From Candidatus Roizmanbacteria bacterium RIFCSPHIGHO2_12_FULL_38_13 (GTDB lineage: Bacteria; Patescibacteriota; Microgenomatia; UBA1406; GWC2-37-13), in assembly GCA_001789555.1 (NCBI GenBank), contig MFZZ01000042.1, positions 11,244 through 75,243 on the forward strand: DNA of 64,000 nucleotides, given 5' to 3'. The position numbers were made by a program, and so were the translations under genes. Of this stretch, positions 27,332-44,060 are shown one piece after another. Position 1 is the stretch's first letter, and each line of letters begins with the position of its first letter. The notes beneath the pieces were generated by a model, which was not told the origin of the DNA, searched no databases, and saw only the letters and a list, made by a program, of their open reading frames with translations.

Positions 27332-27385
27332 AAAATTTTGAATAAATAATAATTGAGTGTATGGCTACCACTCCAGGTATTAGAT

Positions 27386-29845: not shown

Positions 29846-30343
29846 ATGAATAAATTATTTATTGCATTAGTAGCCATACTTTCAATTGCAATTATTGCAG
29901 GATCGTATTTTGTGCTTCGGACAAAAACTCCACTTGCAGTTTCTGTAACAAAATATTCTGCAAACGACAATCAAAAACCAAAAGTTGAGTTAGACCAAAC
30001 GTCTTACGATATGAAAACTATTAAAGTATCTGACACCGCAACTGCAAATTTTACTATTAAAAATACCGGAAATAAGCCATTGCAACTTTTTGATATATCC
30101 TCAAGTTGTGGTTGTACTGTCGGTCAAGTAATTTATAAAGGTAAAGAGAGTGCAGAGTATGGGATGCATTCGGTAGGTAGTTTTTCGACACCGATTGAAC
30201 CTGGAACCGAAGCTACAGTTAAAGTGCTCTATCGTCCTTTTGTGATGCCGGTGTATGGAGCGGTACAGCGAGAAGTGTATATATCAACAAATGCTCCTGA
30301 CAATCCCAAACTTGTACTGCAAGTTACAGCAAATGTAAAATAA
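29846..30343 (+). CDS. DUF1573-like secreted protein
   Basis: Signal anchor, beta-rich domain, and the FTIKNTGNKPLQL...SSSCGCT motif. Confidence 0.6.
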   Translation: MNKLFIALVAILSIAIIAGSYFVLRTKTPLAVSVTKYSANDNQKPKVELDQTSYDMKTIKVSDTATANFTIKNTGNKPLQLFDISSSCGCTVGQVIYKGKESAEYGMHSVGSFSTPIEPGTEATVKVLYRPFVMPVYGAVQREVYISTNAPDNPKLVLQVTANVK

Positions 30344-31161
30344 TGGATTCAAATTTTTTATTTGGAATATCGCTTACGGCATCATTTCTTGCTGGAGTCT
30401 TGGCGTTGTTTGCTCCATGTTGTATTACGTTTCTTTTCCCGACCTATCTCGGAACTATATTTAAAGAAAGCAAAAAGGTAATGTTTTATACCTTAATCTT
30501 CGCGCTTGGGTTATCTTTCATACTCATTCCCGTCGCTTTGGGATTTCGATTTCTTATATATTTTCTTGATGCCTATCATACAGAAGTCTATTATGTGGGA
30601 GCCCTTGTTCTTATCGTAATGGGCATATCCACGATAAGACCGTTGTTTCATATTCCACAGTTTTTTAATGTTAAGCCAGGAATTGATAAGAAAGTGAGCG
30701 CGGGATCTGTTTTTGGACTGGGAATTATGTCCGGGCTTACTTCTTCATGTTGCGCACCTGTCCTTTTTGCAGCGATAACGCTGACGTCACTTTCCCCATC
30801 TATTTTCCAGGCAGTTGTAGTTTCCGGCGCATATGTTCTTGGCATAGTTTTCCCGCTTTTTCTTCTATCTCTTGGATATAAAAAATCAACTTCTCTCCTG
30901 CCTGCTGAAAAAAGAAAAAATTTATATACAGTTTTTCAGTATCTTGGGGCGGCAATATTTATCGTTTCCGGTATTACGATTGCGGTCATGAACTATTTGG
31001 GTAAAATCCAGATGGAGAGTATGGAAGGATACGGGAAAGAATTACGCATAGTTGTTTTTAACATTGCTAAAAATTTTCAAAATCCTTTTCTTGATATTAC
31101 TCTTTTTCTAATCATCGTATTTATCTTTTATAAATTACTTAAAAAAACTTATGACAAATGA
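30343..31161 (+). CDS. CcdA/DsbD-like thiol-disulfide transmembrane protein
   Basis: Six or more transmembrane segments with membrane-embedded Cys pairs (FAPCCITF and SSCCAPVL). Confidence 0.55.
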   Translation: MDSNFLFGISLTASFLAGVLALFAPCCITFLFPTYLGTIFKESKKVMFYTLIFALGLSFILIPVALGFRFLIYFLDAYHTEVYYVGALVLIVMGISTIRPLFHIPQFFNVKPGIDKKVSAGSVFGLGIMSGLTSSCCAPVLFAAITLTSLSPSIFQAVVVSGAYVLGIVFPLFLLSLGYKKSTSLLPAEKRKNLYTVFQYLGAAIFIVSGITIAVMNYLGKIQMESMEGYGKELRIVVFNIAKNFQNPFLDITLFLIIVFIFYKLLKKTYDK

Positions 31162-32557
31162 AAATAAAAAATCATTTTTTATGAAAACGCTTCAAAACGT
31201 ATATAAGGATTTCAGCATGAAAATTCTTTCCCTATCTTTATTTATCTCTTTTATGCTTCTTGATTATTTTCTTTTGACAAGAACCACTTCGTGGGAACGA
31301 TTCATACAAGATAATAATCCTATTTACATATGGCTTACGATTGGGCTTTCAATTATAAACAATCTTCTTATCGGGATCGTAATTACAACACTTGTTTATG
31401 CTTTTGAAAAAGCGAAACAAAAAACTCATACCGAACTCGCCAACTCAAGCATGGGTATTTTTTTGAGCCTTGTCTCGGTAGGGTGCGCTGTTTGTGGCGG
31501 ATTTTTGCTTCCGATTTTAGGGATCGCCGCTTCACTTACGGCTTTTCCGTTTCAAGGACTTGAGATAAAAGTATTATCAATACTTCTTCTTTTGTACTCA
31601 TTCAATATTCTTTCGCTTCGGATTCATGGTATATTTCAAAATAAATCATTCAAACGCTCTGCTTTAGTGGGATTGGTATTTGTACTCTTTGTCTATGCTA
31701 TTCCCCGTATGCCGCTTCCAATAGGTAATGTATTTGGAAGTATCGCAGAGAAAAATATCGAGAATGCGTCTGGTGTCTCTGATGAAATATATAGCCAAAT
31801 TAATCCGGAAAAAGGATATGAATTAAATACCATATTTGGTGACCTTGGGCCACGTATGCTTGCAATGGGTGTTATTGATGTTGAAAAATTTCAGCAATTA
31901 TATGCCGGTCGCGGAGAAGCGTTGACCGATGAACAACTGACAATTCTCACCAAAGGAACAGATAAAAAAGTCAAGATTACCCGTGAAAATTCCAATTTTC
32001 TTCTCAATTTTTTCTGGGCCGCTGGTCTCGGGAATAAATCACGGGTTCTGACTGAAGGAGAAATGGTTAAATACGGAGACGGTGGAGCGGGTGGATTTGC
32101 CTCAACCGGTGGTTGGACCCTCGCCAAAAGTGACCCCATGGATTATTATGCTAAGGAAACTTTGATTCAAATGACACCGGAGCAGGAAGCTCTTGTTGAA
32201 AAAGTCTCATCAAATATTTATCGACCATGCTGCGGAAATCCCACATCGTTTCCTGACTGCAATCACGGTATGGCACTTTTATCAGTCTTACAGCTCATGG
32301 CAAGTCAAGGTGCAACCGAAGATGAGATGTATGAAGCCGGAAAATATATCAGTGCGTACTGGTTTCCAGCTAATTACTACGACCTCGCTCTCTATTTCAA
32401 GAGTAAAGAAAATACGGAATTTAAAGATGTCGACCCCAAAAAATTACTAAGTAATGAGTATTCCTCATCTAACGGCTGGGCACAGAAAAAAAGATGGCTG
32501 CAAGATCAAGGAATCGTTAAGCAGCCGCCGAAAGGAGGTGGTGGATGTGGTGTTTAA
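31151..32557 (+). CDS. membrane protein with a transmembrane CxxC module and a Cys-rich extracytoplasmic domain
   Basis: VGCAVCGGFLLPILG sits in a transmembrane helix. The C-terminal domain carries YRPCCGNPTSFPDCNHGMAL and a terminal GGGGCGV. Confidence 0.5.
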   Translation: MTNENKKSFFMKTLQNVYKDFSMKILSLSLFISFMLLDYFLLTRTTSWERFIQDNNPIYIWLTIGLSIINNLLIGIVITTLVYAFEKAKQKTHTELANSSMGIFLSLVSVGCAVCGGFLLPILGIAASLTAFPFQGLEIKVLSILLLLYSFNILSLRIHGIFQNKSFKRSALVGLVFVLFVYAIPRMPLPIGNVFGSIAEKNIENASGVSDEIYSQINPEKGYELNTIFGDLGPRMLAMGVIDVEKFQQLYAGRGEALTDEQLTILTKGTDKKVKITRENSNFLLNFFWAAGLGNKSRVLTEGEMVKYGDGGAGGFASTGGWTLAKSDPMDYYAKETLIQMTPEQEALVEKVSSNIYRPCCGNPTSFPDCNHGMALLSVLQLMASQGATEDEMYEAGKYISAYWFPANYYDLALYFKSKENTEFKDVDPKKLLSNEYSSSNGWAQKKRWLQDQGIVKQPPKGGGGCGV

Positions 32558-32756
32558 AACAAAAACTTACAAAATGGAAGGAATACATTGTGGAGCTTGC
32601 GTGGAAATGATAAAAAGAACTTTAAGAAAAATAAAGGGAATTCATAATATGCATGCTGATTTTAATAAAAAAGAGATTACACTGAAATTATTGAAAGATT
32701 ATGATGAGACAGTTGCACGTAAGTCAGTATCTGAACTTGGTTATCAATTAGTCTAA
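32547..32756 (+). CDS. copZ: heavy-metal-associated (HMA) domain copper chaperone
   Basis: YKMEGIHCGACVEMIKRTL matches the GMxCxxC-type motif. A GTG start lies 8 nt after AGGAGG. Confidence 0.7.
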   Translation: MVFKTKTYKMEGIHCGACVEMIKRTLRKIKGIHNMHADFNKKEITLKLLKDYDETVARKSVSELGYQLV

Positions 32757-32766
32757 ATGAAAGCAG

Positions 32767-33042
32767 GTGGTAGATATGAAATTGGAAAAAATTCTTATAG
32801 CAAATACACTCGCTATTACAACAGGATTTGCCTGGACAATCTGTACACTAGCTGTGGCATTTTTTCCAGCTTTCTCATTCCAGTTTACACAATGGTTGAC
32901 ACACGGCTTGGTCTTAAGACAGATGGGAGATGTAAATGTAACATTTTATGGATATTTTATGGTCGGCATTGTGCTTGTTGCGTTTGCATGGATTACAGGT
33001 TATGTATTTGGACTAGTTTGGGAGGTCATGAGTAAAAAGTGA
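32767..33042 (+). CDS. small membrane protein
   Basis: 91 aa with two or three hydrophobic segments. Preferred over the overlapping frame 32757-33035. Confidence 0.4.
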   Translation: MVDMKLEKILIANTLAITTGFAWTICTLAVAFFPAFSFQFTQWLTHGLVLRQMGDVNVTFYGYFMVGIVLVAFAWITGYVFGLVWEVMSKK

Positions 33043-33392
33043 GTATGAAGAAAGTTTTAGGATTCATGATCCCATTTACCTTGCAGCACATCATTTGCTG
33101 TGGAGCCCTTTTATTTTTTCTTATTTCTTCAGGTCTTTTGCTTAAATTTAGTCAAGAAGGCCAAAACAGAATATATTTACTGCCGGCGTTATTCTTTGCA
33201 GCTTTCCTCATATTTTTATATTTTTACTATGGAAGATGCTGTAAACAAAAGGGACATAAAACCTTTCTTGATCATGGTATTTTACTCCTAATTTATCTTC
33301 TCATTTCATTTGTAGTTGGGATTATTTTTATGATCTATGTATTTATTCCCTCGTGGATTCCCGGCTATCAAGGGGGTCCTCTTTTGCCCTGA
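33039..33392 (+). CDS. small membrane protein with Cys pairs
   Basis: 117 aa; HIICCGALL and GRCCKQKGH. Confidence 0.4.
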   Translation: MSMKKVLGFMIPFTLQHIICCGALLFFLISSGLLLKFSQEGQNRIYLLPALFFAAFLIFLYFYYGRCCKQKGHKTFLDHGILLLIYLLISFVVGIIFMIYVFIPSWIPGYQGGPLLP

Positions 33393-33420
33393 TCTTATTA
33401 GTTTTATACATAGTTTTTGA

Positions 33421-33612
33421 TTATTTCATAAACTCCGAAGGGTCAGGAAGTTTTGTCCCCAATGAATTATGGAGATATGTATTTAATAGCATAAAACCTG
33501 CCGAAACTGCTCCTATGATAAAAATGTACTTGGCAATTTTCCATAATCTTTCATCTTCCATTTTTTTAATATAACGAAATGCTAATGAAGATTTTATGAA
33601 GACAAAAAACAC
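33421..33612 (-). CDS. possible small membrane protein
   Basis: 63 aa ORF and the only minus-strand ORF in a plus-strand gene run. Weak call. Confidence 0.2.
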   Translation of the reverse strand: MFFVFIKSSLAFRYIKKMEDERLWKIAKYIFIIGAVSAGFMLLNTYLHNSLGTKLPDPSEFMK

Positions 33613-33658
33613 TTCCGTCTTAATAAATTCTTAATGGGGTATTGATTATCATATTGAC

Positions 33659-34093
33659 ATGAAAAGAAAAAGCATACTTTTTGGCATCCTTGGGGCACTT
33701 GCCCTAATTCTCTTCTACTTTATTGTGATGGGTCTTGCATCAAGGAATGTAGAGGCAACTTTTTCACAGTTACGGCAGATGTGGTACTGGATTTTTGCAT
33801 TAGCCGGCGGATTTGGCGTGCAGGTTGGATTATTTTCTTATTTGAAAATGGTTATAAAACATAACGCCGCACATGTTGGAGCAATTACGGCAACAAGTAC
33901 AGGAACATCGACTATGGGTATGATCGCCTGCTGCGCTCATCATCTTACGGATGTCCTACCAATCGTAGGTTTATCGGGGGCGGCGATCTTTCTCACTAAT
34001 TATCAAATACCGCTCATTATCTTGGGCATAATCATGAATTTCGTAGGAATTGTATACATTTTACGAGTTTTAAAAAAATATCATGAAAAATAA
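33659..34093 (+). CDS. membrane protein with a CCAHH motif
   Basis: Four hydrophobic segments, with MIACCAHHLTDVLP inside a helix. Confidence 0.45.
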   Translation: MKRKSILFGILGALALILFYFIVMGLASRNVEATFSQLRQMWYWIFALAGGFGVQVGLFSYLKMVIKHNAAHVGAITATSTGTSTMGMIACCAHHLTDVLPIVGLSGAAIFLTNYQIPLIILGIIMNFVGIVYILRVLKKYHEK

Positions 34094-34550
34094 CACCACT
34101 TTTCTATTAATAATCGGTTGTATCGCAATGATTATTTTTGCAATTCTTTTTGCCATGAAACTACAGAAAAATATCAAACTTCCTGTTCAACAAGAAAGCA
34201 ATACAGCCAAGACAGTACAACCGCAGTTTGAAACTCAAGAGGCGGATGGAGGGAACGTAACTGTTATTGCTACTCCAGAAGTCTTACAAGTTGGAAAACA
34301 GCCACGGATCAAATTAATATTCGATACTCATACGGAAGAACTTGATTTCGATGTATCAAAAGTCAGTATTCTTCTTGATGACGCTGGAAATACATACTCC
34401 GAAAGTATCTGGGAAGGCTCACCTCCTGGCGGGCATCACAGAAATGGAAAGCTCATTTTTGATAAACAACTGAAAGAGGCATCAAAGATAAAACTTGTAA
34501 TAACAGACGTTTCAGGTATTAAAGAGAGAGTATTTGAATGGAAACTATAA
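34083..34550 (+). CDS. membrane-anchored beta-rich protein (possible metal-binding, GGHH)
   Basis: N-terminal anchor, beta-sandwich-like sequence, and WEGSPPGGHHRNGKLIF. Confidence 0.4.
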   Translation: MKNNTTFLLIIGCIAMIIFAILFAMKLQKNIKLPVQQESNTAKTVQPQFETQEADGGNVTVIATPEVLQVGKQPRIKLIFDTHTEELDFDVSKVSILLDDAGNTYSESIWEGSPPGGHHRNGKLIFDKQLKEASKIKLVITDVSGIKERVFEWKL

Positions 34551-34607
34551 CAGTCTATAATAAAAATTGATCATTCTTGTTATTAATATAATTAATTTCC
34601 GATTCAT

Positions 34608-36737
34608 ATGGAAAATCATACTATAAAATCATTTTATACTTGCCCAATGCATCCAGAAGTTCAGCAGGATAAACCCGGCAGATGTCCAAAATGTGGGATG
34701 GATCTGGTAAAAATTCAAAATGAAATCAGTCATGCACATCATAATATCGATCATTCAGATCATGATCATGAAAGTATGATGGCCACTCCCGATGCAGCAA
34801 GTGATTTTTTACATCGATTTTTTATTGTAACTGCACTATTGGTTCCACTAGCCTTCTTTTCAGAGCCTGCAGTAAAATTTTTAGGCGCTCCTGATTTTGC
34901 CTCAAGACCTTATGTAGAGTTTGGGATTGCTTCGATCATTTTTTACTTTAGTTTGATTTTTTTTCAACACGCGAGTCATGAAGTTAAGTCTCGTCAGTTT
35001 GGGATGATGACACTGGTTTCCTTGGGAGTGGGAGCAGGTTATCTTTTTTCAGCAGCTTCTACTTTTATTCCCGCTATTGAAGTTGAGTTTTATCTGGAAA
35101 TATCAACACTTATTTGGGTACTTTTGTTTGGCCATTTTTTAGAGGCAAAATCATCGTCTGCTGCGGGTGATGCACTTCAGGAGGTAGCGAAACTATTGCC
35201 GAAAGAGGCGCATCTCAAAACCGAAAGTGGAATTACGGAAGTTACTATCGATACACTCAAGGAAGCCGATATCGTTATAGTAAAATCCGGTGAGAAGGTA
35301 CCTGCTGATGGAGAAGTAATAAAAGGCAGCGCTAATTTCAATGAAGCACATATCACCGGAGAATCCAAACCGGTTGAAAAATCTGTAGGGTCACCAGTTG
35401 TTGCCGGCGCGATAAATATTGACGGATCGGTTGAAGTCAAACTACTCCGAGTAGGCGAGTCGTCAACCATCGGTCAAATTAAAAATCTGATCGCCTCTGC
35501 CAAACAAACAAAACCTTCGGTGCAAAAGCTGGCTGACAGAGCCTCTAAAATATTGACGTTTTCGGCTCTCCTGGTGGCGTTTTCTGCTTTAATCGTTTGG
35601 TCACTAATAGTTGGTGAGCCACTTGTATTTGCCGCAACAATGGCTATAACTGTTCTGGTGATTGCCTGTCCTCATGCACTGGGACTTGCGATCCCTACGG
35701 TGTCTACGATCGCGACCAAACTGGCGGTCAATAACGGAGTCTTTATCAAAGACATGGCAAAAATTGAAATAGTAAAAAGTGCCGACTATGTGGTATTTGA
35801 TAAAACCGGTACTCTAACACGCGGAGAGTTTGGAGTAACAGATGTCGAAGTCTTAGATGGAAACCGAGATACATTACTATCCACAGTGGGCAGCATCGAA
35901 AGTCAGTCTTCTCATGTTATCGGAATGGCGATGGTTTCGTATCTCAAGGATAAAAAGATTGTCTTTGAAGAAGCCGAAAATATTAAGAACCTGGCCGGTA
36001 TGGGTATGGAAGGCTCGGTTAACGGTAAAAAGTATTTTGTCGGTAACCAGCGCTTGATGGAAAAGAAAGGACTTATGTCACCGGCTGCTCAAGAAGTTAT
36101 AAACACCTTTTCTCAAGGAGGCAAAACACCGGTATTTGTTGCGGGTGAACAAAAAATATTGGGAATTTTAGGCTTAAGCGATGAGGTTAAAAACGAGTCT
36201 CGTCAGGCTGTGGACGAACTTCACAAACTAGGAGTTAAAGTAGCTATGCTTACGGGCGACACCAAGGCAGCAGCAGCTCCTGTCGGCAAAGAACTTGGTA
36301 TAGATGCCGTTTTTGCCGAAGTTTTACCGGAAGACAAGTATAAACACATCAAAGAACTGCAAGATAAGGGCAATATCGTTTTAATGGCGGGTGATGGAGT
36401 AAATGATGCTCCTGCGCTCACTCAAGCCAATGCGGGAGTGGCGATAGGCGCCGGTACCGATGTTGCAGTTGAGGCAGGTGATATCGTGCTTACCCAAAGT
36501 AATCCGCAACACATTGTGCGTTTAATCATTCTTTCCCGAAAAGTGTATAGAAAGATGGTTGAGAATTTGTTCTGGGCGGTTGGATACAACGTGCTTGCTA
36601 TTCCGGCAGCCGCAGGGCTCTTTATACCTCTTGGGTTTAGACTTACTCCGGCAGTTGGAGCGCTTCTCATGAGTTTATCTTCAGTTATTGTAGTTATTAA
36701 TGCCATGACATTGCGGAAAGCGAAGTTACAAGTTTAG
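34608..36737 (+). CDS. copper-translocating P1B-type ATPase, CPH subtype
   Basis: N-terminal YTCPMHPEVQQDKPGRCPKCGMDL, a His-rich stretch HAHHNIDHSDHDHE, TGES, transmembrane CPH (IACPHALGLA), DKTGTLT and GDGVNDAP. Confidence 0.9.
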   Translation: MENHTIKSFYTCPMHPEVQQDKPGRCPKCGMDLVKIQNEISHAHHNIDHSDHDHESMMATPDAASDFLHRFFIVTALLVPLAFFSEPAVKFLGAPDFASRPYVEFGIASIIFYFSLIFFQHASHEVKSRQFGMMTLVSLGVGAGYLFSAASTFIPAIEVEFYLEISTLIWVLLFGHFLEAKSSSAAGDALQEVAKLLPKEAHLKTESGITEVTIDTLKEADIVIVKSGEKVPADGEVIKGSANFNEAHITGESKPVEKSVGSPVVAGAINIDGSVEVKLLRVGESSTIGQIKNLIASAKQTKPSVQKLADRASKILTFSALLVAFSALIVWSLIVGEPLVFAATMAITVLVIACPHALGLAIPTVSTIATKLAVNNGVFIKDMAKIEIVKSADYVVFDKTGTLTRGEFGVTDVEVLDGNRDTLLSTVGSIESQSSHVIGMAMVSYLKDKKIVFEEAENIKNLAGMGMEGSVNGKKYFVGNQRLMEKKGLMSPAAQEVINTFSQGGKTPVFVAGEQKILGILGLSDEVKNESRQAVDELHKLGVKVAMLTGDTKAAAAPVGKELGIDAVFAEVLPEDKYKHIKELQDKGNIVLMAGDGVNDAPALTQANAGVAIGAGTDVAVEAGDIVLTQSNPQHIVRLIILSRKVYRKMVENLFWAVGYNVLAIPAAAGLFIPLGFRLTPAVGALLMSLSSVIVVINAMTLRKAKLQV

Positions 36738-36765
36738 CCTGTCCACTTATCATATATTGATGATG

Positions 36766-37473
36766 TCATTTTAAATCTTTCTTCTTTTCCTCAAATTCCT
36801 TTTTATCAATTTCACCTTTAGCGTAGCGTTCTTTGAGAATATCTAAAGCCGATCTGTCATGTGTTTGGCTTTTGCCTTGATTTGCAGTCCATTTTATCAA
36901 GGCGACAATGCCTAAGATAATCAGACCCCAAAATAAGATCATAAAAATCCAGCCAAAACCCCAACCGTATGTTCCCATTGGATTACCCGCAAAATTACCC
37001 ATCATACCATTTCCACCTCCTTCCTGCGTCCCGTAGAAGGCTGTTAACATATCTTGTGGCATGGGTGCGTTTGGTTCACAGCCACTCATGCGTTTGCCCA
37101 TGGCAATATGCATTTGTTCCTCTCCTTCGCTTCCCAACATCTGGGTTAGTCTGTCATTCATTGCCTCATGGGAATCACCCATCATCTGCCCCATGAAATA
37201 CTCGCCAAGAGCTCCAAAGTCATCATTAGATAGATCTACGCATTTTAACTCTTTGCTTTGAAGTTTTTTCCAGACTTCTTTTCCTGCGGCTTCTTCACGG
37301 GCGGTATGACCCGCCTGCGCCGTTGCTTCGGTGGGCAGGCCGTTATCGTTTTGAGTTACCGTATCAACTTTGCCCATCATGTTGTTTCCCATCATCCCTT
37401 GGGCAAAGGAGTGAAGGGGGAAAAACAGTATCAAACTTAAAATTAATATGGCAAGAGAAAACTGTATTTTCAT
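36766..37473 (-). CDS. secreted Met/His-rich protein with a transmembrane segment and C-terminal SHOCT domain
   Basis: Signal peptide, MMGNNMMG / QMMGDSHEAMN / GNGMMGNFAGNPMG stretches, one transmembrane segment, and ALDILKERYAKGEIDKKEFEEKKKDL (SHOCT-like). Confidence 0.55.
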   Translation of the reverse strand: MKIQFSLAILILSLILFFPLHSFAQGMMGNNMMGKVDTVTQNDNGLPTEATAQAGHTAREEAAGKEVWKKLQSKELKCVDLSNDDFGALGEYFMGQMMGDSHEAMNDRLTQMLGSEGEEQMHIAMGKRMSGCEPNAPMPQDMLTAFYGTQEGGGNGMMGNFAGNPMGTYGWGFGWIFMILFWGLIILGIVALIKWTANQGKSQTHDRSALDILKERYAKGEIDKKEFEEKKKDLK

Positions 37474-37513
37474 AAATTATTTTGCTTTGTCAATAATACT
37501 TCCTTCTCTTTAT

Positions 37514-37834
37514 TTAAAAAGTTATTACTTTATCGCTATCAGCAATCAAATTGTATAAATCTTCAATTCCTCCTGCCAGACATTCCTGACTGCTCTCCTG
37601 TTTACGTATTGCCATACACGTGCCACAAGCGACAATCTTACCTCCTGGTTCCAGGAATTTTTGTACCTGTTTAGTGATGTTAAATTGAGCAGAAGTATGC
37701 TTTCCGTATTCGACACCCTCACCAATAAGAAAAACGGAAACAGTATCACCCTTACCAATCGCCAGATTTGCCAACCTAAACGCATTCCAATTGGTTTCCA
37801 CGTTGCTACTTGAAAGGACAATAGCTAGCTTCAT
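37514..37834 (-). CDS. DsrE/DsrF-like family protein
   Basis: 106 aa with MKLAIVLSS..., FLIGEGV and ACGTCM blocks. Confidence 0.5.
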   Translation of the reverse strand: MKLAIVLSSSNVETNWNAFRLANLAIGKGDTVSVFLIGEGVEYGKHTSAQFNITKQVQKFLEPGGKIVACGTCMAIRKQESSQECLAGGIEDLYNLIADSDKVITF

Positions 37835-37879
37835 ATTCTTATTGTATCAATTTTCAGGAATCGATCAGAAGCCAAGATT

Positions 37880-38062
37880 TTATTTACAAGTACACAAAGC
37901 TTCTGCTTGACCACAACCGGTGCATTTCGGCATACAGTTTCGATCCGATGCCGGTTCGCCATGTTTGTGATTTGCATCATGAGCATCTGATTCCTCACCA
38001 CAAATAGCACATTTCCAGCCTTTTGCCTCCATTTCGCATTTGGAACATTTCATATTATTCAC
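37880..38062 (-). CDS. Cys/His-rich miniprotein (metallothionein- or zinc-ribbon-like)
   Basis: 60 aa with 9 Cys in CxxC, CxxC, CxxxC-x2-C and CxC spacing, plus 4 His. Confidence 0.45.
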   Translation of the reverse strand: MNNMKCSKCEMEAKGWKCAICGEESDAHDANHKHGEPASDRNCMPKCTGCGQAEALCTCK

Positions 38063-38073
38063 CTTCTTTCTAT

Positions 38074-38718
38074 TTAGTAATTTACATAATACTTAATATC
38101 CGCTGATGTTTTAAAGGTAGTAACCCATGACTGGACTTCCTGCTGGAATTTCTGTTGTATTAACTGATCCATTATCTGTTTTTTTGTTTCGGCTTCTTTT
38201 CCCTCTTCTATTGGAATTTCATTTTCGGCAATATACTTATTCACTTCTGCATCAGTTACTTTTAGCTTATCCGCGAAAAGTTTTTCAATTATTTTCTGGT
38301 TTTTTACACTTTCTCTTAAACTTTCTTTAGTCATTCCCTGTTGAAGGAGTGCCTGCTCAAGTGTACCACCTTGCTCCGTAACCGAAGCTTCAATTGTTTT
38401 AATTTCCTGATTTACTTCATCTTCCGATATAATAATTCCTTTCTTTTTCGCTTCATTTTTTATGAGTGTATCAGTAATAAGTGAGTCAAGAATACTTTTA
38501 CCACCTTGTTTTTCTAATTTCTGAATGACACTTAATCTACTGATTGGCTGACCATTTACAGTTGCAGCTACAAATACTCCTTTAAAGAAATATGATATTA
38601 CAAGAATAATCCCTAGTATCGCTATACCAATCAAAGTCCTCTTATTTTTAAATTTGTCCAAAGGACCTGATTCAGTAGGCTCTCCATTTTCTTTAGATTT
38701 CATTGATTTATTTTTCAT
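38074..38718 (-). CDS. SurA N-terminal-domain-like periplasmic chaperone
   Basis: Membrane anchor, VAATVNGQPISRLSV, and repeated helical ...EVNQEI... / ...EVNKYI... blocks. Confidence 0.5.
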   Translation of the reverse strand: MKNKSMKSKENGEPTESGPLDKFKNKRTLIGIAILGIILVISYFFKGVFVAATVNGQPISRLSVIQKLEKQGGKSILDSLITDTLIKNEAKKKGIIISEDEVNQEIKTIEASVTEQGGTLEQALLQQGMTKESLRESVKNQKIIEKLFADKLKVTDAEVNKYIAENEIPIEEGKEAETKKQIMDQLIQQKFQQEVQSWVTTFKTSADIKYYVNY

Positions 38719-38741
38719 AAATATTTAAATTAGATAATTAG

Positions 38742-38842
38742 TAACTCATGTTACGCATCACACGTCATGCTGAATTCATTTCAGCATCCCATCGAGATCC
38801 TGAAACAAGTTCAGGATGACGATAAATGCGTAAGGTGAGTTA
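38742..38842. mobile_element. MITE-like element: 17-bp terminal inverted repeats around two hairpin modules
   Basis: TAACTCATGTTACGCAT ... ATGCGTAAGGTGAGTTA (15 of 17 complementary). The core is CGTCATGCTGAA-TTCAT-TTCAGCAT and ATCCTGAA-ACAAG-TTCAGGATGACG. Confidence 0.6.
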
Positions 38843-39065
38843 GTAAAATACTACTATAATTTGTGGGCATTTCCATCAGATTTTAATTGTACTATTTTAA
38901 ATAGCGATCAAAAAATTCAATCGTTCTTTTAGAAATTATATCCCATCAAAGATTAACAAAGTTATGATCTTGTCTAAAGGCTTTTCCTGCTTTTTTGTGA
39001 TTCGATTGAATGCGAAGTTATTTCAAGATTACATTGGACATTGAAAGATTTTATGCATAGAATAT

Positions 39066-39704
39066 TTAATGGTTATCAATTCCTCGAAAGCTTTTAATAA
39101 ATGTTTGTATTCTTTCTTCATCAAACTCATCCAGTGTATCTATGCGAGTCCATGCGGTAAGCCCAAGACGTGACTCCATGTCATGATATGGAGCCAATAT
39201 TACTTTTTCATTATATTTTTTTACAATCTCTTCTAGTTGTTTAATGAGCTTTTGGCAGTCGTCTTTTTTTGTATCACAATTGTATTGAATCATTACGCCA
39301 CCATCTTCAAGATTGTGAATCTGCAGTTCATCGGGTATTGGCTCATCATGGATTCCCCACTTCGCAATAGATCCGATGTGAGGCCCGGATGTAGGTGGCT
39401 TTGAATTATATTCCTCATGAAGTGTGTCAACAGAGTCGATATGTCTGTTACCCATAGATTGTACAAATGTACCCGGAAGAGGTTTACCGAAATTTTTGAT
39501 AAAGATATATAAACCGTACCCAAGCAATCCAATAAGGATACTTATAACCACGTATACGGCAATCTTTTTTAAATTTATTTTTTTTTGCGACTTTCCCTTC
39601 TGCAGTTTTTTTTCTAGCTTTTCAAGATATCTTCTTTCACGTCTTGTTAGATGATCTTTTGTTTTTAACTCTTCAATCTGTTTTCCAACATCTTCAGTTT
39701 CCAT
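39066..39704 (-). CDS. DUF3105-like membrane-anchored protein
   Basis: KPPTSGPH and HNLEDGGVMIQY blocks after a Lys-rich N-terminus and one transmembrane segment. Confidence 0.55.
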   Translation of the reverse strand: METEDVGKQIEELKTKDHLTRRERRYLEKLEKKLQKGKSQKKINLKKIAVYVVISILIGLLGYGLYIFIKNFGKPLPGTFVQSMGNRHIDSVDTLHEEYNSKPPTSGPHIGSIAKWGIHDEPIPDELQIHNLEDGGVMIQYNCDTKKDDCQKLIKQLEEIVKKYNEKVILAPYHDMESRLGLTAWTRIDTLDEFDEERIQTFIKSFRGIDNH

Positions 39705-39707
39705 AAT

Positions 39708-40220
39708 TTATTTTACAACTTTGCACACATCGCAAAGATTAAGGATTTTTCTTGATGTGAAATAAACCGATAATAGAATAAATATTATTGATAATAAGAC
39801 GATTTGAAATCGATATGCAAGTAAAAATGTCACAGTTCCGATTCCTAAGAATCCCAAGATTGTTGATGCGCATGCAACACAGGTGATTGATCCAAAAAAA
39901 GATGAGATAATACCAAATCCACCGGTAACTGACATCATGCCGAGCTTCTTAACTTGTTTATCTCTCTCACGATTGAATACATATAGATTAAGCATAATTG
40001 AGACTCCTGTCAGCAGACCAAGTAGCGCAATAGTGCCATAATCCCGTGGCGGCATAATGCTTAGCTGGAATGCGAGATCATTTCCGGGAACTAAAAGCAG
40101 CGGAATGGCAATGATCATGATAAAGATTATCAGTGCTGTCACCACAGCCCCGAGAAGATATGTCTTCTTTTGAAACACGATCTTCAATGCTTCAATTATG
40201 ACCGAAATATGATACTTCAT
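39708..40220 (-). CDS. membrane protein with a transmembrane CxxC module
   Basis: GSITCVACASTILGFLGIG. Same layout as the N-terminal part of the 31151-32557 protein. Confidence 0.45.
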   Translation of the reverse strand: MKYHISVIIEALKIVFQKKTYLLGAVVTALIIFIMIIAIPLLLVPGNDLAFQLSIMPPRDYGTIALLGLLTGVSIMLNLYVFNRERDKQVKKLGMMSVTGGFGIISSFFGSITCVACASTILGFLGIGTVTFLLAYRFQIVLLSIIFILLSVYFTSRKILNLCDVCKVVK

Positions 40221-40222
40221 CC

Positions 40223-40999
40223 TTAAAGTAAAGCATCAATTTGTCGTTTGACATCTTCAAACGGAAATGCTCCCCCGATGAAATCACGTTTACCATCTTT
40301 AGTCACGATGACCGTTCCGGGTGTACCTTGAACTCCTGCGTCTGTACCACCAACCATTTCGTCCTGTATATGCTTAGCATATTTTCCAGAATCGAGACAT
40401 GATTGAAACTTAGTTCCATCTATACCAACCTCTTCCGCGAGTGGCCGAAGCTGATCAAGAGCAAACCCGGTACCGTTTGACGTTGTCCTTTCGAATATTT
40501 TATCAATATAAGAAAAGAATGCATCGTTTCCTCCCAGTTCACCAACGCATTCTGCTGCTTCGTCTTCCTTCTGGGCATTCTGATGGAAGGAAAGCGGGAA
40601 GTGACGGTAGACCCAGGCTACATCACTACCATACTCATCCGTGACTTGTTGCATAGTTGTGTGGAACCTTTTGCAGAATGGACATTCTAAGTCTGAATAT
40701 TCAACAAGAAGGATTTTGGCATTGATATCTCCGCGAATGTGATCTTTTTCCATCACTTTTGGCATTTTTGAAAGGTCTTGTGGAGGTTGGGGTGGAGGTT
40801 GATTTGCTGGCTCGCCGGCTTGCACTATCGTATTTTGTTTCGCCTCCAGTTTGTTTACTTTAAATAAAGTGTACGCATTTAGGCCAAGAACAGCAATAAG
40901 AGCAAGAATTATAAGTTTGTTAGCATCAAAACCAGATTTACGGTTTGAGCTTTTTGTATCAGATTGTTCTACTGTTAAAATGGACTTTTTTAGAACCAT
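40223..40999 (-). CDS. DsbA-family thioredoxin-fold protein
   Basis: Membrane anchor, Pro/Gln linker, and EYSDLECPFCKRFH (CPFC active site). Confidence 0.75.
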   Translation of the reverse strand: MVLKKSILTVEQSDTKSSNRKSGFDANKLIILALIAVLGLNAYTLFKVNKLEAKQNTIVQAGEPANQPPPQPPQDLSKMPKVMEKDHIRGDINAKILLVEYSDLECPFCKRFHTTMQQVTDEYGSDVAWVYRHFPLSFHQNAQKEDEAAECVGELGGNDAFFSYIDKIFERTTSNGTGFALDQLRPLAEEVGIDGTKFQSCLDSGKYAKHIQDEMVGGTDAGVQGTPGTVIVTKDGKRDFIGGAFPFEDVKRQIDALL

Positions 41000-41018
41000 A
41001 AAGTAAAAGAATTGTTAA

Positions 41019-41035
41019 TACTACAAACTGTAGTA
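41019..41035. promoter_or_regulatory. BlaI/CopY-type operator-like palindrome TACTACA-AAC-TGTAGTA
   Basis: Perfect 7-3-7 inverted repeat containing TACA/TGTA, 20 nt upstream of the dsbA-like start. Confidence 0.5.
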
Positions 41036-41058
41036 GATTAAAAGTACGAAGTCAAGCG

Positions 41059-41931
41059 TTATTTTAGTTGAGAAGAATAAAGGTTGTTATGATTTTCACC
41101 GCATTGTTCTACAGTATTTGCCGACACAGTCTGAGTCTCAAACGGGATAAAGAGTAAGGATAGCAACAAACAAACAGACAAAATCGATGCCGCGAGGTGT
41201 CGTATAGAGACCTTGTAAGTGCGACGAGAATAAAAACCAGGGTAGTAAGCAGGAAGAGGTTCACCCACCATAATAGCCAATGCACGTTGTAAGTGTTGAG
41301 ACGAACTCTGTGAACGTAAAACAGCAGTATCCGCCTCCTTCTCAAACTGAGTTTTTAATGTATAGAATAATAATTTGAATATTGGAATAAATATCAATGT
41401 AGAAACGATAATGTCTGAAGTGAAAAGCCATAAATTATGCTTATGCTCAAGATGATATTTTTCATGGATAAGTACGGCTTCTAACTCTTTGTCCAGCATG
41501 GCATCCACTAGACCTGTAGAGATAAATATCTTTGGCAATAATAAACCACCGGTAAATACAATCTCTTTCTTTGAAAGTAGTAAAATAATTTTATCGTACG
41601 CTATTTCAGCGGTCGTTCGTGCATTTTTCAGTTTAAAGGGTTCATGATGGACTCTTTTCTGCAATAATACCTCAAGGTTTTTTTGTGTTTTAACAAATGA
41701 AAAAAGAGCCCTTGTCAGGAACAAAAATCCAAGTAATATAATTCCGGCAGAAACACCAAAGCCTACAAAGTGTATGCCGGTTGTGAAGACCGATGTAACC
41801 GCTTGATGACAAATATTATATATGTGTGCAAATGTGAGTTGACTGTACTTCTGTAGTGTGAGTGAAAGCAAGACAATAATTCCACTAAATGACACCAAAA
41901 TAATGGAGGATGTAAGAGTACTTTTTTTCAT
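41059..41931 (-). CDS. M56-family (BlaR1-like) membrane metalloprotease lacking a sensor domain
   Basis: Transmembrane segments and HEKYHLEH (HExxH). Only 290 aa, with no penicillin-binding-type C-terminal domain. Confidence 0.65.
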   Translation of the reverse strand: MKKSTLTSSIILVSFSGIIVLLSLTLQKYSQLTFAHIYNICHQAVTSVFTTGIHFVGFGVSAGIILLGFLFLTRALFSFVKTQKNLEVLLQKRVHHEPFKLKNARTTAEIAYDKIILLLSKKEIVFTGGLLLPKIFISTGLVDAMLDKELEAVLIHEKYHLEHKHNLWLFTSDIIVSTLIFIPIFKLLFYTLKTQFEKEADTAVLRSQSSSQHLQRALAIMVGEPLPAYYPGFYSRRTYKVSIRHLAASILSVCLLLSLLFIPFETQTVSANTVEQCGENHNNLYSSQLK

Positions 41932-41942
41932 ACTGATAATGA

Positions 41943-42275
41943 TTATTTATGTATTTTTTCCAGTTCATCTGTGAATGCGACTACGGCTTCTCTTCCGAAC
42001 TGATTAACAAGTGAACCGATTACCGATTTAACAGAGTTGTGGACTACCTGCTTTCTGGAATGATATGGAGTGTATCTGTAGGCTTTACCATCTTTTGTAC
42101 GTTTTAATAATCCCTTTTCAACCAGACGATACATAATAGTCATTACTGTTGTGTAAGCGATCTCTCTTCCTTTCCGAAGTATTTTTAGAACATCGCTTAC
42201 GCTGGCCTCTTTTTTCCCCCAGATAATATCCATAATTTTTTTTTCAAGCGGGCCCAATGAGTATATTTCATTCAT
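41943..42275 (-). CDS. BlaI/MecI/CopY-family transcriptional repressor
   Basis: LGPLEKKIMDIIW...YTTVMTIMYRLVEKGLLKR winged-helix block. Confidence 0.75.
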   Translation of the reverse strand: MNEIYSLGPLEKKIMDIIWGKKEASVSDVLKILRKGREIAYTTVMTIMYRLVEKGLLKRTKDGKAYRYTPYHSRKQVVHNSVKSVIGSLVNQFGREAVVAFTDELEKIHK

Positions 42276-42276
42276 A

Positions 42277-42293
42277 TACTACAGATTATAGTA
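42277..42293. promoter_or_regulatory. second BlaI/CopY-type operator-like box TACTACA-GAT-TATAGTA
   Basis: Lies 2 nt upstream of the blaI-like ATG. The 22-mer ATACTACAGATTATAGTAGATG closely matches ATACTACAAACTGTAGTAGATT at 41017-41038. Confidence 0.5.
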
Positions 42294-42384
42294 GATGAAA
42301 ATAAATGAGACAATAGCCATTGATCAATTAAGGTACTTTACTATCTTCATCAAATCTTAACCGCCTATTTAGTATCATATACTC

Positions 42385-43050
42385 ATGAGAATTTTACTTG
42401 TTGAGGATGAAAAAAAATTATCGGATGTCATAAAAAAGGGTTTAATCGAAGAGGGTTATGCCGTTGATCAAGCATTTAACGGGGAAGAAGGACTGTATCT
42501 TGCAGAATCCGAAAGTTATGACGTGATTATTCTAGACATAATGCTGCCTAAATTGGATGGCATGACCATATGCCGCGAACTTCGTAAAAAAGGGATTGTT
42601 ATTCCTGTTCTCATGCTCACCGCAAAAACACGGGTGGAAGATAAAGTTACAGGATTAAATGTTGGTGCGGATGATTACTTGACCAAACCATTTGAGTTTA
42701 TCGAACTTAAATCAAGGATCCATGCTCTGATTCGTCGTTCATCTCAGAAACCCATTTCTACAATATCAATTGGTGACATTGAGATCGACACCGTCAAACG
42801 GATAGTCAAAAAGGATGGAAAAGAAATAATATTCACCCCAAAAGAATTTGCAATTTTAGAATTTTTAGCTCGACACAAAGACGAAGTTGTCACCCGTACC
42901 CAGATCACGGAACATATTTGGGACTATAATTTTGAAGGTCTTTCCAATGTCGTCGATGTATTTATTGCTTCACTTAGAAAAAAACTGAAGACAAAAATTA
43001 TTCAAACGGTGCACGGCATCGGATACAAATTAACCGAAATAAAAGTATGA
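42385..43050 (+). CDS. OmpR-family response regulator
   Basis: Receiver domain (ILLVEDE, DVIILDIMLP, LTAK) plus a winged-helix output (GIGYKL). Confidence 0.9.
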   Translation: MRILLVEDEKKLSDVIKKGLIEEGYAVDQAFNGEEGLYLAESESYDVIILDIMLPKLDGMTICRELRKKGIVIPVLMLTAKTRVEDKVTGLNVGADDYLTKPFEFIELKSRIHALIRRSSQKPISTISIGDIEIDTVKRIVKKDGKEIIFTPKEFAILEFLARHKDEVVTRTQITEHIWDYNFEGLSNVVDVFIASLRKKLKTKIIQTVHGIGYKLTEIKV

Positions 43051-44060
43051 ATTTACTTAGAAGTTTACGGAATAGATTATTTCTGTGGTATGTAGGAAGC
43101 CTCCTTCTTTTCTCGGTCTTTTTTTATATCGTTGTTCATATACTCGATATTCATTATGGTATTGAAATAGTCTTTATTTTGTTTTTTCTTTTGGCATGTA
43201 TCGGCTTTTTTATTATTTATAAAATAACCGATGCTTTGACGTATTTAACTGAAAAAATAAAAGAAATATCACGTGAAACTTTAGGACAAAGAATCACGGG
43301 AATACGCAGTGAAGATGAAATAGGAGAACTTGCAACTGCATTTAATAACCTTCTTGATAGGCTTGATGGCGCATTTAAACGGGAACAGCAGTTTATCGCG
43401 GATGTCGCACACGAACTCAAAACTCCTCTTGCCACTTTGAGAAGTACATTGGAGGTATCTTTATCAAAAGATCGAAATCGTCAAGAATACAAAAAAGTTA
43501 TTACCGATGCTATCTCTGAAACAAATCATCTTTCATCGACTTTAAATAATGTTTTAAGCCTCGCCTGGTCAGAAACACCGCAAGAGCAAAAACATATGAC
43601 TAAGATCAACCTTAGTGTATTGCTTACGGAGCTGGTAGATATTGCGGAAAAACTGGCTTCACAAAAAAAACAAATCGTCAAATTTCAGATTAAGCAGGAG
43701 GTTTATATTCAAGGTAACAAAGAAAAACTTGCACGGGCGCTTGTTAACATTATTGATAATGCCGTTAAATATACCCTGCCAAAAGGCGAAATTTTAGTAA
43801 AGCTCAAAGTAGAAGATAAACATGCTCTTATTATTTTTGCCGATAATGGACGGGGAATTTTAAAAAAAGATATTCCCCATATTTTTGATCGTTTTTATCG
43901 CGGGTCTGCGACGGATAAAGTTTTTGGTTCAGGTATCGGGCTTTCAATCACGCAGTCCATTATAAAAGCTCATCACGGAGATATTTTAGTACAAAGTACC
44001 GTGGGGAAAGGGACGAAGTTTATTATTACTTTACCATTTTTCAACCCGCTATCCTCCTAA
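43047..44060 (+). CDS. sensor histidine kinase
   Basis: Two transmembrane segments, HAMP, H-box FIADVAHELKTPL, N-box IIDNAVKY, and G-boxes DNGRGI and GSGIGL. Confidence 0.9.
   Translation: MNLLRSLRNRLFLWYVGSLLLFSVFFYIVVHILDIHYGIEIVFILFFLLACIGFFIIYKITDALTYLTEKIKEISRETLGQRITGIRSEDEIGELATAFNNLLDRLDGAFKREQQFIADVAHELKTPLATLRSTLEVSLSKDRNRQEYKKVITDAISETNHLSSTLNNVLSLAWSETPQEQKHMTKINLSVLLTELVDIAEKLASQKKQIVKFQIKQEVYIQGNKEKLARALVNIIDNAVKYTLPKGEILVKLKVEDKHALIIFADNGRGILKKDIPHIFDRFYRGSATDKVFGSGIGLSITQSIIKAHHGDILVQSTVGKGTKFIITLPFFNPLSS

Follow-up and report, generated by a model that had tools for sequence, protein, structure and literature searches.

A probable copper-homeostasis and envelope-protection island assembled from recurring gene modules in a Roizmanbacteria genome

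Overview of the gene cluster

Comparative analysis of a 64,000-nucleotide stretch of DNA from Candidatus Roizmanbacteria bacterium RIFCSPHIGHO2_12_FULL_38_13 (contig MFZZ01000042.1; hereafter the window, whose first nucleotide is position 1) revealed a 14-kb cluster that is, with a probability of roughly 60%, an island for copper homeostasis and envelope protection typical of its Microgenomates-type (Patescibacteria) lineage, built from recurring modules that shuffle. The families of the cluster occur together in dozens of related species and therefore probably constitute a lineage-specific copper-defence kit. An original prediction, made from the nucleotide sequence, had placed the island at 29846-42293 and read it as one integrated envelope system coupling copper export with disulfide or metal-thiolate handling. 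The interval itself was upheld and contained nine plus-strand and nine minus-strand open reading frames (ORFs), all of which were recovered, but the island continued past 42293 to 44060 with the addition of a response regulator and kinase that most resemble heavy-metal types. The features of the cluster are as follows (aa, amino acids; TM, transmembrane helix):

29846-30343, plus strand: g1, membrane-anchored DUF1573 beta-sandwich protein
30343-31161, plus strand: g2, 272 aa, divergent CcdA/DsbD_TM-type membrane protein
31151-32557, plus strand: g3, 468 aa, four-TM domain, fifth TM, and Cys-rich ectodomain
32454-32756, plus strand: CopZ-like HMA chaperone (Pfam HMA)
32767-33042, plus strand: g5, DUF5676 protein with two TM
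33039-33392, plus strand: g6, 117 aa, three TM, without family
33421-33561, minus strand: antisense miniprotein, 46 aa, single TM
33659-34093, plus strand: g7, 144 aa, four TM, CCxHH motif
34083-34550, plus strand: g8, 155 aa, anchored Ig-like beta-sandwich ectoprotein
34608-36737, plus strand: P1B copper ATPase (E1-E2 ATPase, HAD, and HMBD)
36766-37473, minus strand: g10, secreted Met-rich domain, TM, and cytoplasmic SHOCT domain
37514-37834, minus strand: DsrE-like protein (Pfam DsrE)
37880-38062, minus strand: 9-Cys miniprotein (g12), 60 aa, without family
38074-38718, minus strand: SurA-like protein, anchored (Pfam SurA_N_3)
38743-38841, strandless: palindromic element, two hairpins between imperfect terminal inverted repeats
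39066-39704, minus strand: g14, anchored DUF3105 ectoprotein
39708-40220, minus strand: g15, 170 aa, four TM, CxxC in TM3
40223-40999, minus strand: g16, membrane-anchored DsbA-like protein, CPFC motif
41059-41931, minus strand: g17, BlaR1-like M56 protein, HEKYH motif
41943-42275, minus strand: g18, BlaI/CopY-family winged-helix protein
42385-43050, plus strand: response regulator, OmpR-type, best match TIGR01387
43047-44060, plus strand: histidine kinase, best match TIGR01386

Pfam matches above the gathering score comprised DUF1573, HMA, DUF5676, E1-E2 ATPase/HAD/HMBD, SHOCT, DsrE, SurA_N, DUF3105, DsbA/Thioredoxin_4, Peptidase_M56, and Penicillinase_R, confirming the assignable members of the prediction; the names DUF1573, DUF5676, DUF3105, SHOCT, DsrE, and SurA_N imply no function by themselves. 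Seven products (g2, g3, g6, g7, g8, the 9-Cys protein, and g15) fell into no Pfam or NCBIfam family, in agreement with the view that most parts are undescribed, and an exact-sequence cluster look-up matched g2 alone. The motifs on which the prediction had been built (CGC, CC pairs, CxxC, CCAHH, GGHH, and CPH) were present in the translations and most were invariant among homologues.

Gene neighbourhood conservation

The clustering of these families with copper genes is real, strong, and far beyond chance. Locus sampling was centred on g3 or on DsbA, and the g3-centred sample comprised 80 species-level loci, each consisting of a g3 homologue and no more than 10 kb of flanking sequence; their ORFs were called in six frames and searched with each window protein by phmmer. 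Many contigs are incomplete and a single-query phmmer search misses divergent members, so that the linkage counts are lower bounds. Homologues of g2 and of the ATPase were each encoded in 45 of the 80 loci, followed by g1 (34), CopZ (21), the histidine kinase (20), the response regulator (19), the SHOCT protein g10 (18), DUF5676 (16), g7 and DUF3105 (15 each), g8 (13), BlaI (12), BlaR1 (11), g6 (9), and DsbA (7). Twelve of the listed genes other than g3, together with the response regulator and kinase, recurred in 9-45 of the 80 loci, compared with 0 for argG and 1 each for argH and Ham1 from the window flank, and the linkage is therefore not attributable to chance. The gap between g2 and g3 had a median of 65 bp. 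Flanks of 5 kb or more on each side were available for 36 loci, of which 29 encoded g2, 26 the ATPase, and 35 at least one further island family. The linkage of the unassigned genes with copZ, the copper P1B ATPase, and dsbA was thus found across many genomes. Homologues of the DsrE-like and SurA-like genes were present in one locus each and of the 9-Cys gene in none (0/80), and the inclusion of the DsrE-like protein (1/80) and the 9-Cys miniprotein as island partners in the original prediction was not sustained.

The gene content of the related islands confirmed copper as their theme. A cupredoxin and a SHOCT gene flanked g3 in a Daviesbacteria island, and relatives' islands also held CsoR, an ATPase, and DUF411 in addition to multicopper oxidase, DUF302, COX2-like cupredoxins, and YtkA. 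Mercury or another metal as the substrate was considered and rejected in view of the multicopper oxidase, cupredoxins, and CsoR in these relatives.

Modular organization

Rather than one fixed operon, the cluster is mosaic, with at least three modules that are found separately and in varied combinations. Module A has the core order DUF1573-g2-(SHOCT)-g3 and is often followed by the response regulator and histidine kinase or by CopZ-DUF5676-g6-g7-g8-ATPase. Module B consists of BlaI-BlaR1-g3-DUF3105 or BlaI-BlaR1-DsbA-g15-DUF3105, while module C comprises g7-g8 adjoining an HMBD-type ATPase. Within 2 kb of g3, g2 was the neighbour in 36 loci, BlaR1 in 9, and both in 0; the proposal of one integrated system was contradicted by these mutually exclusive contexts and by modules that separate and recombine. 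A short g3 consisting of the last helix and ectodomain only was encoded in 17 of the 80 loci, adjoining g2 in 17 of 17 and g1 in 16 of 17. Since the short g3 always lay beside g2 and the two contexts exclude each other, the CcdA-like g2 and the N-terminal membrane domain of g3 itself are suggested to be alternative membrane partners of the g3 ectodomain.

In the window, module A (its g3 being the long form) is accompanied by module C and by the DsbA-g15 variant of module B. Its closest fully assembled relative (locus L085) carries short-g3, multicopper oxidase, and DUF302 genes between DUF3105 and SHOCT; at the same place the window holds the SurA-like, 9-Cys, and DsrE-like genes and a 348-bp gap with the palindromic element. 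This element of approximately 100 nt (TAACTCA..TTACGCAT) had been called a miniature inverted-repeat transposable element, of which the palindromic structure was substantiated while only one copy was present within the window, and an Rfam scan of it gave a chance-level match only.

Type IV secretion or conjugation genes (TrbC/type IV secretion system pilin, TraC-like, and TraG/DUF87) and integrase genes were observed beside copper islands in L087 (16807-20522) and L001 (18186-21461), a hint that, in Patescibacteria, integrative conjugative elements can mobilize such islands. A mobile-element origin of the window island was considered given the conjugation genes near L087 and the integrase near L001 but was rejected, as the inspected window flanks had neither: the eight flanking ORFs with matches were all metabolic, hydrolase, or regulatory, and none was an integrase, conjugation, or type IV secretion system gene.

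Cysteine-rich proteins of module A

The g1 protein matched Pfam DUF1573 with 63 bits (cut-off 26.1) and, across 31 homologues, displayed S-C88-x-C90-T and M107 as invariant and H108 in 96%; its gene sits beside g2 in the loci of relatives. DUF1573 has been described as a selenoprotein family with a UGC motif, in which the CxC becomes UxC in the selenoprotein forms (PMC9312934).

A CcdA fold can be safely transferred to g2 by homology, as the family profile matched Thermus CcdA (PDB 5VKV) with E = 1.2e-19 over 200 residues and 8 of 23 homologues matched PF02683 (best 7e-12), the window protein alone having no Pfam match. The 272-aa protein corresponds to the membrane core only. Its invariant vicinal Cys pairs, APC26C27 in TM1 (with P33) and SC136C137AP139 in TM4, align with the PC motifs that hold the active-site cysteines of CcdA, although Cys-Cys doublets are atypical for them. 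The description of g2 as a CcdA-like protein with two membrane Cys pairs was accordingly borne out as to homology, while its sites are vicinal doublets and not the canonical CcdA ones.

The g3 family has more than 4194 homologues, all of them unnamed hypothetical proteins without a Pfam family, with named sources in Microgenomates, Roizmanbacteria, Daviesbacteria, Levybacteria, and Patescibacteria group bacteria, and relatives were encoded in 421 stretches (one genome per GTDB species). The protein is predicted to start on the inside and to cross the membrane five times; it has an invariant C112xxC115 in TM3, an ectodomain with the invariant motif R-P-C360-C361-x-N-x-T-x-F-P-D-C370-N-H372-G-M-A, and a flexible or disordered GGGC466GV tail at the C-terminus. 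The AlphaFold2 model reached a predicted local distance difference test (pLDDT) score of 81.5 overall and 86-98 over most of the ectodomain. A profile search of the PDB gave chance matches only, and a Pfam scan of 67 homologues returned weak membrane-helix noise only. A separate family of approximately 205 aa with a shorter version of the ectodomain motif (H-P-C-C-N-A-P-I-x3-D-C-L-H) was identified in L028 (7360-7977), L042 (1973-2590), and L046 (12063-12677), encoded near full-length g3 and DUF3105.

Among 13 homologues of g10, C78, C132, and M94 were invariant and H102 and H122 were conserved in 92%; its gene often lay between g2 and g3 in the loci of relatives.

Copper export genes of module C

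CopZ passes cytoplasmic Cu(I) to a P1B ATPase for export. The CopZ-like protein of the window matched Pfam HMA with 39.2 bits (cut-off 24.8), carried the motif GIHCGAC, and had CopZ models as its best NCBIfam matches, these scoring below their cut-offs. Its true start probably lies near 32541-32565 and overlaps the end of g3, and an overlap of copZ with the g3 stop was also seen in L005, L007, and L009. The ATPase matched the copper-ATPase model TIGR01511 with 542 bits (cut-off 397) and contained an N-terminal HMBD, a His-rich stretch, the membrane motif ACPH (CPH), and FDKTGT.

Several small membrane proteins are encoded between these two genes. The DUF5676 protein g5 (47 bits) had an invariant C26 in TM1 and H46 in 93%, and the invariant residues of g6 were H17..C20C21G, located in TM1, and C68, located in a basic (cytoplasmic) loop. 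The plus-strand run of nine genes was reproduced from the prediction, which had overlooked the conserved 46-aa antisense ORF at 33421-33561 on the minus strand, in the gap between g6 and g7. Orthologous ORFs of this miniprotein (MEDERLWKIAKYIFIIGAVSAGFMLLNTYLHNSLGTKLPDPSEFMK) were found in the same place and orientation in L006, L007, L009, L010, and L026, the protein being conserved though the DNA diverges, and its position between g6 and g7 implies that the plus-strand run comprises at least two transcription units.

The g7 protein carried an invariant C91-C92-x-H94(-H) in TM3 and matched nothing in Pfam or the PDB, and its family comprised 825 clusters at 50% identity in an exhaustive search of a 1.84-billion-protein library. 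At least 44 of the best 150 g7 relatives were g7-g8 fusions, and others were fused to HMA, YHS, or HMBD domains at the N- or C-terminus. In the window the g8 start lies within the g7 end. Invariant residues of g8 were T82-H83 and G117-H118-H119-R120, and its AlphaFold2 model was an Ig-like sandwich (pLDDT 89.3) whose best Foldseek match was the Helicobacter pylori copper-resistance protein CrdA, a weak match (E 5.5e-3, TM-score 0.54) among generic Ig-like folds and thus a hint, from the model, of structural likeness. A protein with a bacterial PH domain (bPH_2) was encoded between g8 and the HMBD-type ATPase in L085 (18236-18736) and L087 (13785-14297) and was absent from the window.

DsbA, its neighbours, and the four-helix membrane proteins

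The g16 protein can safely be assigned a DsbA-type thioredoxin fold by sequence similarity (Thioredoxin_4 71 bits, DSBA 65.6 bits), with C106-P-F-C109 and the cis-Pro motif T226-P227 invariant. Three Cys are invariant in its neighbour g15: a CxxC pair within the outer half of TM3 and a third residue in a basic C-terminal tail predicted to be cytoplasmic. The g15 profile matched neither DsbB nor VKOR in the PDB and gave only sub-threshold motif matches to HMA domains. In all three g15-centred loci (L085-L087) DsbA lay immediately upstream of g15. A sample free of g3 bias, comprising 80 metagenome loci fetched with a DsbA alignment, had a g15-type ORF directly adjoining DsbA in 14 of 80 and within approximately 3 kb in one more; in a stricter downstream test, the next gene after DsbA was a g15-type ORF in 10 of the 70 loci with enough sequence. 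By profile and neighbourhood, g15 thus appears to be a repeated partner of DsbA with no relationship to DsbB or VKOR. A 116-aa three-helix protein with GGLCCFTPL (MerT-like vicinal Cys) was encoded between DsbA and a g15-like gene on a metagenome contig (L152, 2045-2392).

In the DsbA-centred sample, the SurA-like gene adjoined DsbA or the ATPase in L091, L118, L121, and L122, and several loci had the order DsbA-g15-DsbA-SurA-like-ATPase, making it an occasional but real partner of the DsbA/ATPase modules. The g14 protein matched Pfam DUF3105 with 82.6 bits and had invariant P102, H129, E132, and Y140, with H108 in at least 90%; the DUF3105 gene usually came directly after g3 or g15. The DsrE-like gene is probably a local passenger, and the 9-Cys protein, for which no signal peptide was predicted, is a candidate metallothionein or zinc-ribbon-like protein.

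The four-helix membrane domains of g3, g15, and g7 appear to be related. The g15 family and the N-terminal four helices of the g3 family were matched by hhalign with 91.6% (E 8e-7), and approximately 22 of the best 150 g7-family members were also matched by g15 (phmmer E 1e-8 to 1e-4), with the g15 CxxC aligning on the C-x-x-H of the g7 CCxHH. We tentatively propose, as a possibility less probable than the island reading itself, that the g3 N-terminal domain, g15, and g7 represent an undescribed four-helix membrane superfamily through which Cu(I) or reducing equivalents would cross the membrane and reach dedicated ectodomains. Its putative signature would be an intramembrane C-x-x-C or CC-x-H(H) together with a cytoplasmic Cys or a fused metal-binding domain, and the candidate ectodomain partners would be the g3 Cys-rich domain, DsbA-like proteins, and g8. 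If this holds, the superfamily would supply the missing membrane partner of DsbA in the absence of quinones and a respiratory chain as well as a new copper-trafficking route, and the g3 ectodomain would adopt a novel fold whose metal-thiolate or redox centre is formed by CC/C/H and the C-tail.

Regulatory genes

The g17 protein matched PF05569 (M56) with 35.1 bits (cut-off 31) and had the HExxH motif as an invariant HEKYH. It is 290 aa long and ends approximately 25 residues past the last helix; a transpeptidase (penicillin-binding) match was not found, and the NCBIfam BlaR1 models scored 19-21 bits versus 400-1200. In homologues, a brief C-terminal tail outside the cytoplasm carries a conserved C-x7-C, and this Cys-pair tail of the protease might, as we infer, sense copper or thiol oxidation on the outside. 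The BlaR1-like gene was always accompanied by BlaI and lay directly upstream of g3 or DsbA (11/80 loci). The g18 protein matched Penicillinase_R with 96.5 bits, and its best NCBIfam match was CopY_TcrY (TIGR02698) at 60 bits, below 122. The CxCxxxxCxC site of the CopY C-terminus was absent from this 110-aa protein without Cys, which was classified as a BlaI-family winged helix only.

The response regulator and histidine kinase are encoded divergently from the BlaI-like gene, and their best matches, each below the cut-off, were TIGR01387 (CopR/SilR/CzcR; 241 bits, cut-off 279) and TIGR01386 (CopS/SilS/CzcS; 229 bits, cut-off approximately 292). The kinase is of the intramembrane type, having two TM with almost no external loop and no periplasmic sensor domain. 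The response regulator gene followed g3 in 19 of the 80 loci.

Proposed function and alternative explanations

Copper stress is genetically tied to the Dsb-like Scs system in proteobacteria, Scs proteins bind Cu(I), and both redox and Cu(I) roles have been reported for ScsB and ScsC (PMC10907172); a copper-induced dsbDEG operon is controlled by DsbRS (bioRxiv 10.1101/2020.08.17.255257). By analogy, the island probably functions as a combination of CopAZ with a copper-stress thiol system of the Scs/DsbD type would, using different and undescribed proteins. In module C, CopZ would hand cytoplasmic Cu(I) to the CPH-type P1B ATPase for export, with g7 (membrane CCxHH) and g8 (surface His) as an accessory Cys/His relay of the ATPase that would pass or buffer copper between cytoplasmic metal-binding domains, the membrane, and the cell surface. 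In module A, g2 would service extracytoplasmic Cys-rich proteins with reducing equivalents or Cu(I)-thiolate, with the CC...C-x-H cluster and mobile C-terminal Cys of g3 as the acceptor site; g2, or alternatively a g15-type domain, would service g1, g3, and g16. Module B would be a signal-controlled second relay in which g15 partners the DsbA-like g16, and the BlaI/BlaR1-like regulators and the CopRS-like pair would control these units. Copper export would in this way be coupled with thiol handling. The Cys relays may carry electrons (Scs/DsbD-like), Cu(I) (Mer-like), or both, and we lean toward metal-thiolate handling as at least part of their role because of the vicinal Cys pairs, the Cys-to-His substitution in g7, and the fusions to metal-binding domains. 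Invariant Cys, His, or Met residues that are candidate ligands were present across g1, g3, g5, g6, g7, g8, g10, g14, and g15.

A number of observations weigh against this scheme. All steps beyond CopZ and the ATPase are deduced from sequence, fusion, and neighbourhood, and the modules also occur apart, so that any physical or functional coupling between them is one that we infer. The CxxC membrane region of g3 was modelled by AlphaFold2 at low confidence, a Foldseek comparison of the g3 model with the PDB gave nothing below E = 3, and the window g3 is without the Cys after TM4 that is present in most homologues. The window g17 keeps only the first tail Cys. The direct hhalign comparison of the g7 and g3 families was weak (4.6%), and kinship of g7 with the g3 N-terminal domain is therefore claimed only via g15. 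Scans for sigma-70 promoters and terminators remained at shuffle level; cop-boxes (TACAnnTGTA) were not found in the island promoters, and the two matches in the window correspond to chance level. The DsrE-like and 9-Cys proteins are unexplained passengers.

The best-surviving alternative, although unlikely, is a purely redox function, in which two extracytoplasmic thiol-disulfide pathways, one from thioredoxin through g2 (CcdA) to g1 and g3 and the other of g15 with the DsbA-like g16, repair or prevent copper-catalysed mis-oxidation of cysteines in the envelope and the Cys proteins carry no metal. The homology of g2 with CcdA, the DsbA fold of g16 with its CPFC and cis-Pro, the CxC of DUF1573 that is UxC in selenoprotein forms, and the Scs/DsbD precedent would all fit such pathways, as would the membrane CxxC and cytoplasmic Cys of g15, which a transmembrane electron conduit needs. 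However, vicinal Cys-Cys pairs as in g2, g3, g6, and g7 typically mark soft-metal sites and form disulfides poorly, the g15 homologue g7 has His for the second Cys and is fused to HMA, YHS, or HMBD domains, g1, g8, g10, and DUF3105 carry invariant His/Met ligands, and g3 translationally overlaps copZ.

Copper supply is less probable again. Here the island would mature extracytoplasmic cuproproteins (multicopper oxidase, cupredoxin/COX2-like) rather than defend the cell, with a CopB-type ATPase delivering copper, g1, g8, the DsbA-like protein, and DUF3105 acting as Sco/PCuAC-like insertion chaperones, and CcdA maintaining the chaperone thiols in reduced form, the role of TlpA toward Sco. Copper chaperones with a thioredoxin fold or a beta-sandwich are known, and multicopper oxidase and cupredoxin/COX2-like proteins are encoded in the islands of relatives, but the window island has no cuproenzyme. 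Moreover, CsoR, BlaI, and CopRS-type regulators, Met-rich proteins, and an ATPase with a His-rich N-terminus are what resistance determinants typically encode, and the core genes mostly occurred without oxidase genes in the 80 loci, a weak point since the locus maps show only window families.

Very improbable is the view that chance or mobile elements brought unrelated small membrane genes together around a copper pump, a view for which the separate occurrence of modules, the conjugation or integrase genes beside L087 and L001, the three genes without conserved linkage, and, from the comparison with L085, the palindromic element and replaced genes in the SHOCT-DUF3105 interval could be cited, but which is already largely refuted by the co-occurrence of the same families, adjacent in up to 45 of 80 species-level loci versus 0-1 for flanking genes, and by the g7-g8 fusions, and which also conflicts with the fusion of a g15-type domain to g3, the translational overlaps among g1, g2, g3, and CopZ and between g7 and g8, and window flanks without an integrase or type IV secretion system gene where inspected.

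Comparison with known systems

Genetic coupling of copper efflux to Dsb-like thiol systems, with control by copper-responsive regulators, is already established in proteobacteria, and it is the components that differ here, namely the Cys-Cys CcdA core, DUF1573, g3, the g7/g15 superfamily, g8, DUF3105, and the BlaR1 without a penicillin domain. Of these, the g3 and g7/g15 families may represent new mechanisms. Like the Scs and DsbD-DsbC/G systems, the island encodes a DsbD-superfamily membrane protein and anchored or periplasmic Cys proteins including a DsbA-like thioredoxin fold, and it shares with Scs, which is under envelope or copper regulators, the ties to copper (PMC10907172). Unlike ScsB and DsbD, g2 is a bare CcdA core with Cys-Cys doublets and without the periplasmic alpha and gamma domains (CxxC). 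Its partners are DUF1573, g3, and a Met-rich protein instead of ScsC and ScsD, the DsbA-like protein is paired with the four-helix g15, and the host, in contrast to those of Scs, is apparently monoderm and without a respiratory chain.

The HMA chaperone, CPH/HMBD ATPase, BlaI/CopY-family repressor, and two-component pair closest to heavy-metal models resemble CopZ/P1B operons with CopY, CsoR, or CopRS, whereas the many extra membrane genes inside the island set it apart from known CopZ/ATPase operons. The repressor differs from CopY operons in having no C-terminal Cys motif and in being paired with an M56 protease as in BlaI/BlaR1, and the protease differs from BlaR1 in having no penicillin-binding domain and, in homologues, a Cys-pair tail.

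The small membrane proteins g6 and g15 are reminiscent of MerT and MerF in having a Cys pair in a helix and a cytoplasmic-side Cys, the g7 fusions to HMA domains of MerTP, and the g7-g8 combination of a membrane protein and a beta-sandwich ectoprotein, also fused, of CopCD/YcnJ. However, no Pfam or NCBIfam similarity to MerT, MerF, MerC, CopC, or CopD was found, and for g6, g7, and g15 no match to the MerT, MerF, or MerC models was obtained at E<=0.1, so that the likeness is one of pattern only; the ligand set Cys-Cys-x-His-His and a genetic context of copper instead of mercury also differ from Mer. The order of a DsbA-like gene followed by a small four-helix CxxC membrane protein recalls DsbA-DsbB and DsbA-VKOR, and g3 joins a g15-type membrane domain to an extracytoplasmic Cys domain as VKOR-Trx fusions do. 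In contrast to DsbB and VKOR, the g15 CxxC lies within the helix and its further Cys is predicted to be cytoplasmic and not in an outer loop, and the homologue g7 has His for Cys and metal-binding-domain fusions.

Patescibacteria make up a large share of bacterial diversity, are without respiratory chains, and are mostly uncultured. The literature search found no paper linking Patescibacteria to DsbA or to these DUFs, nothing relevant on DUF3105, DUF5676, or the candidate phyla radiation with DsbA, and none on the novel island components in a copper or thiol role. The island offers a concrete parts list, including the g3 family (more than 4000 members in 421 species-level genomes, without Pfam family or detectable solved fold), the CCxHH family of 825 clusters tied by fusions to copper-binding domains, and the DsbA partner g15. 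Should the proposed mechanisms hold, these would be new components for copper trafficking and disulfide/thiol maintenance across membranes.

Flanking genes

The upstream flank of the island consists of arginine biosynthesis genes and Ham1, and two alpha/beta hydrolases are encoded farther downstream. Upstream of the island, a TerC-family membrane protein is encoded at 23759-24679 and an argF-argG-argH block at 25146-28882, both on the minus strand; arginine biosynthesis genes are unusual in the reduced genomes of Patescibacteria.

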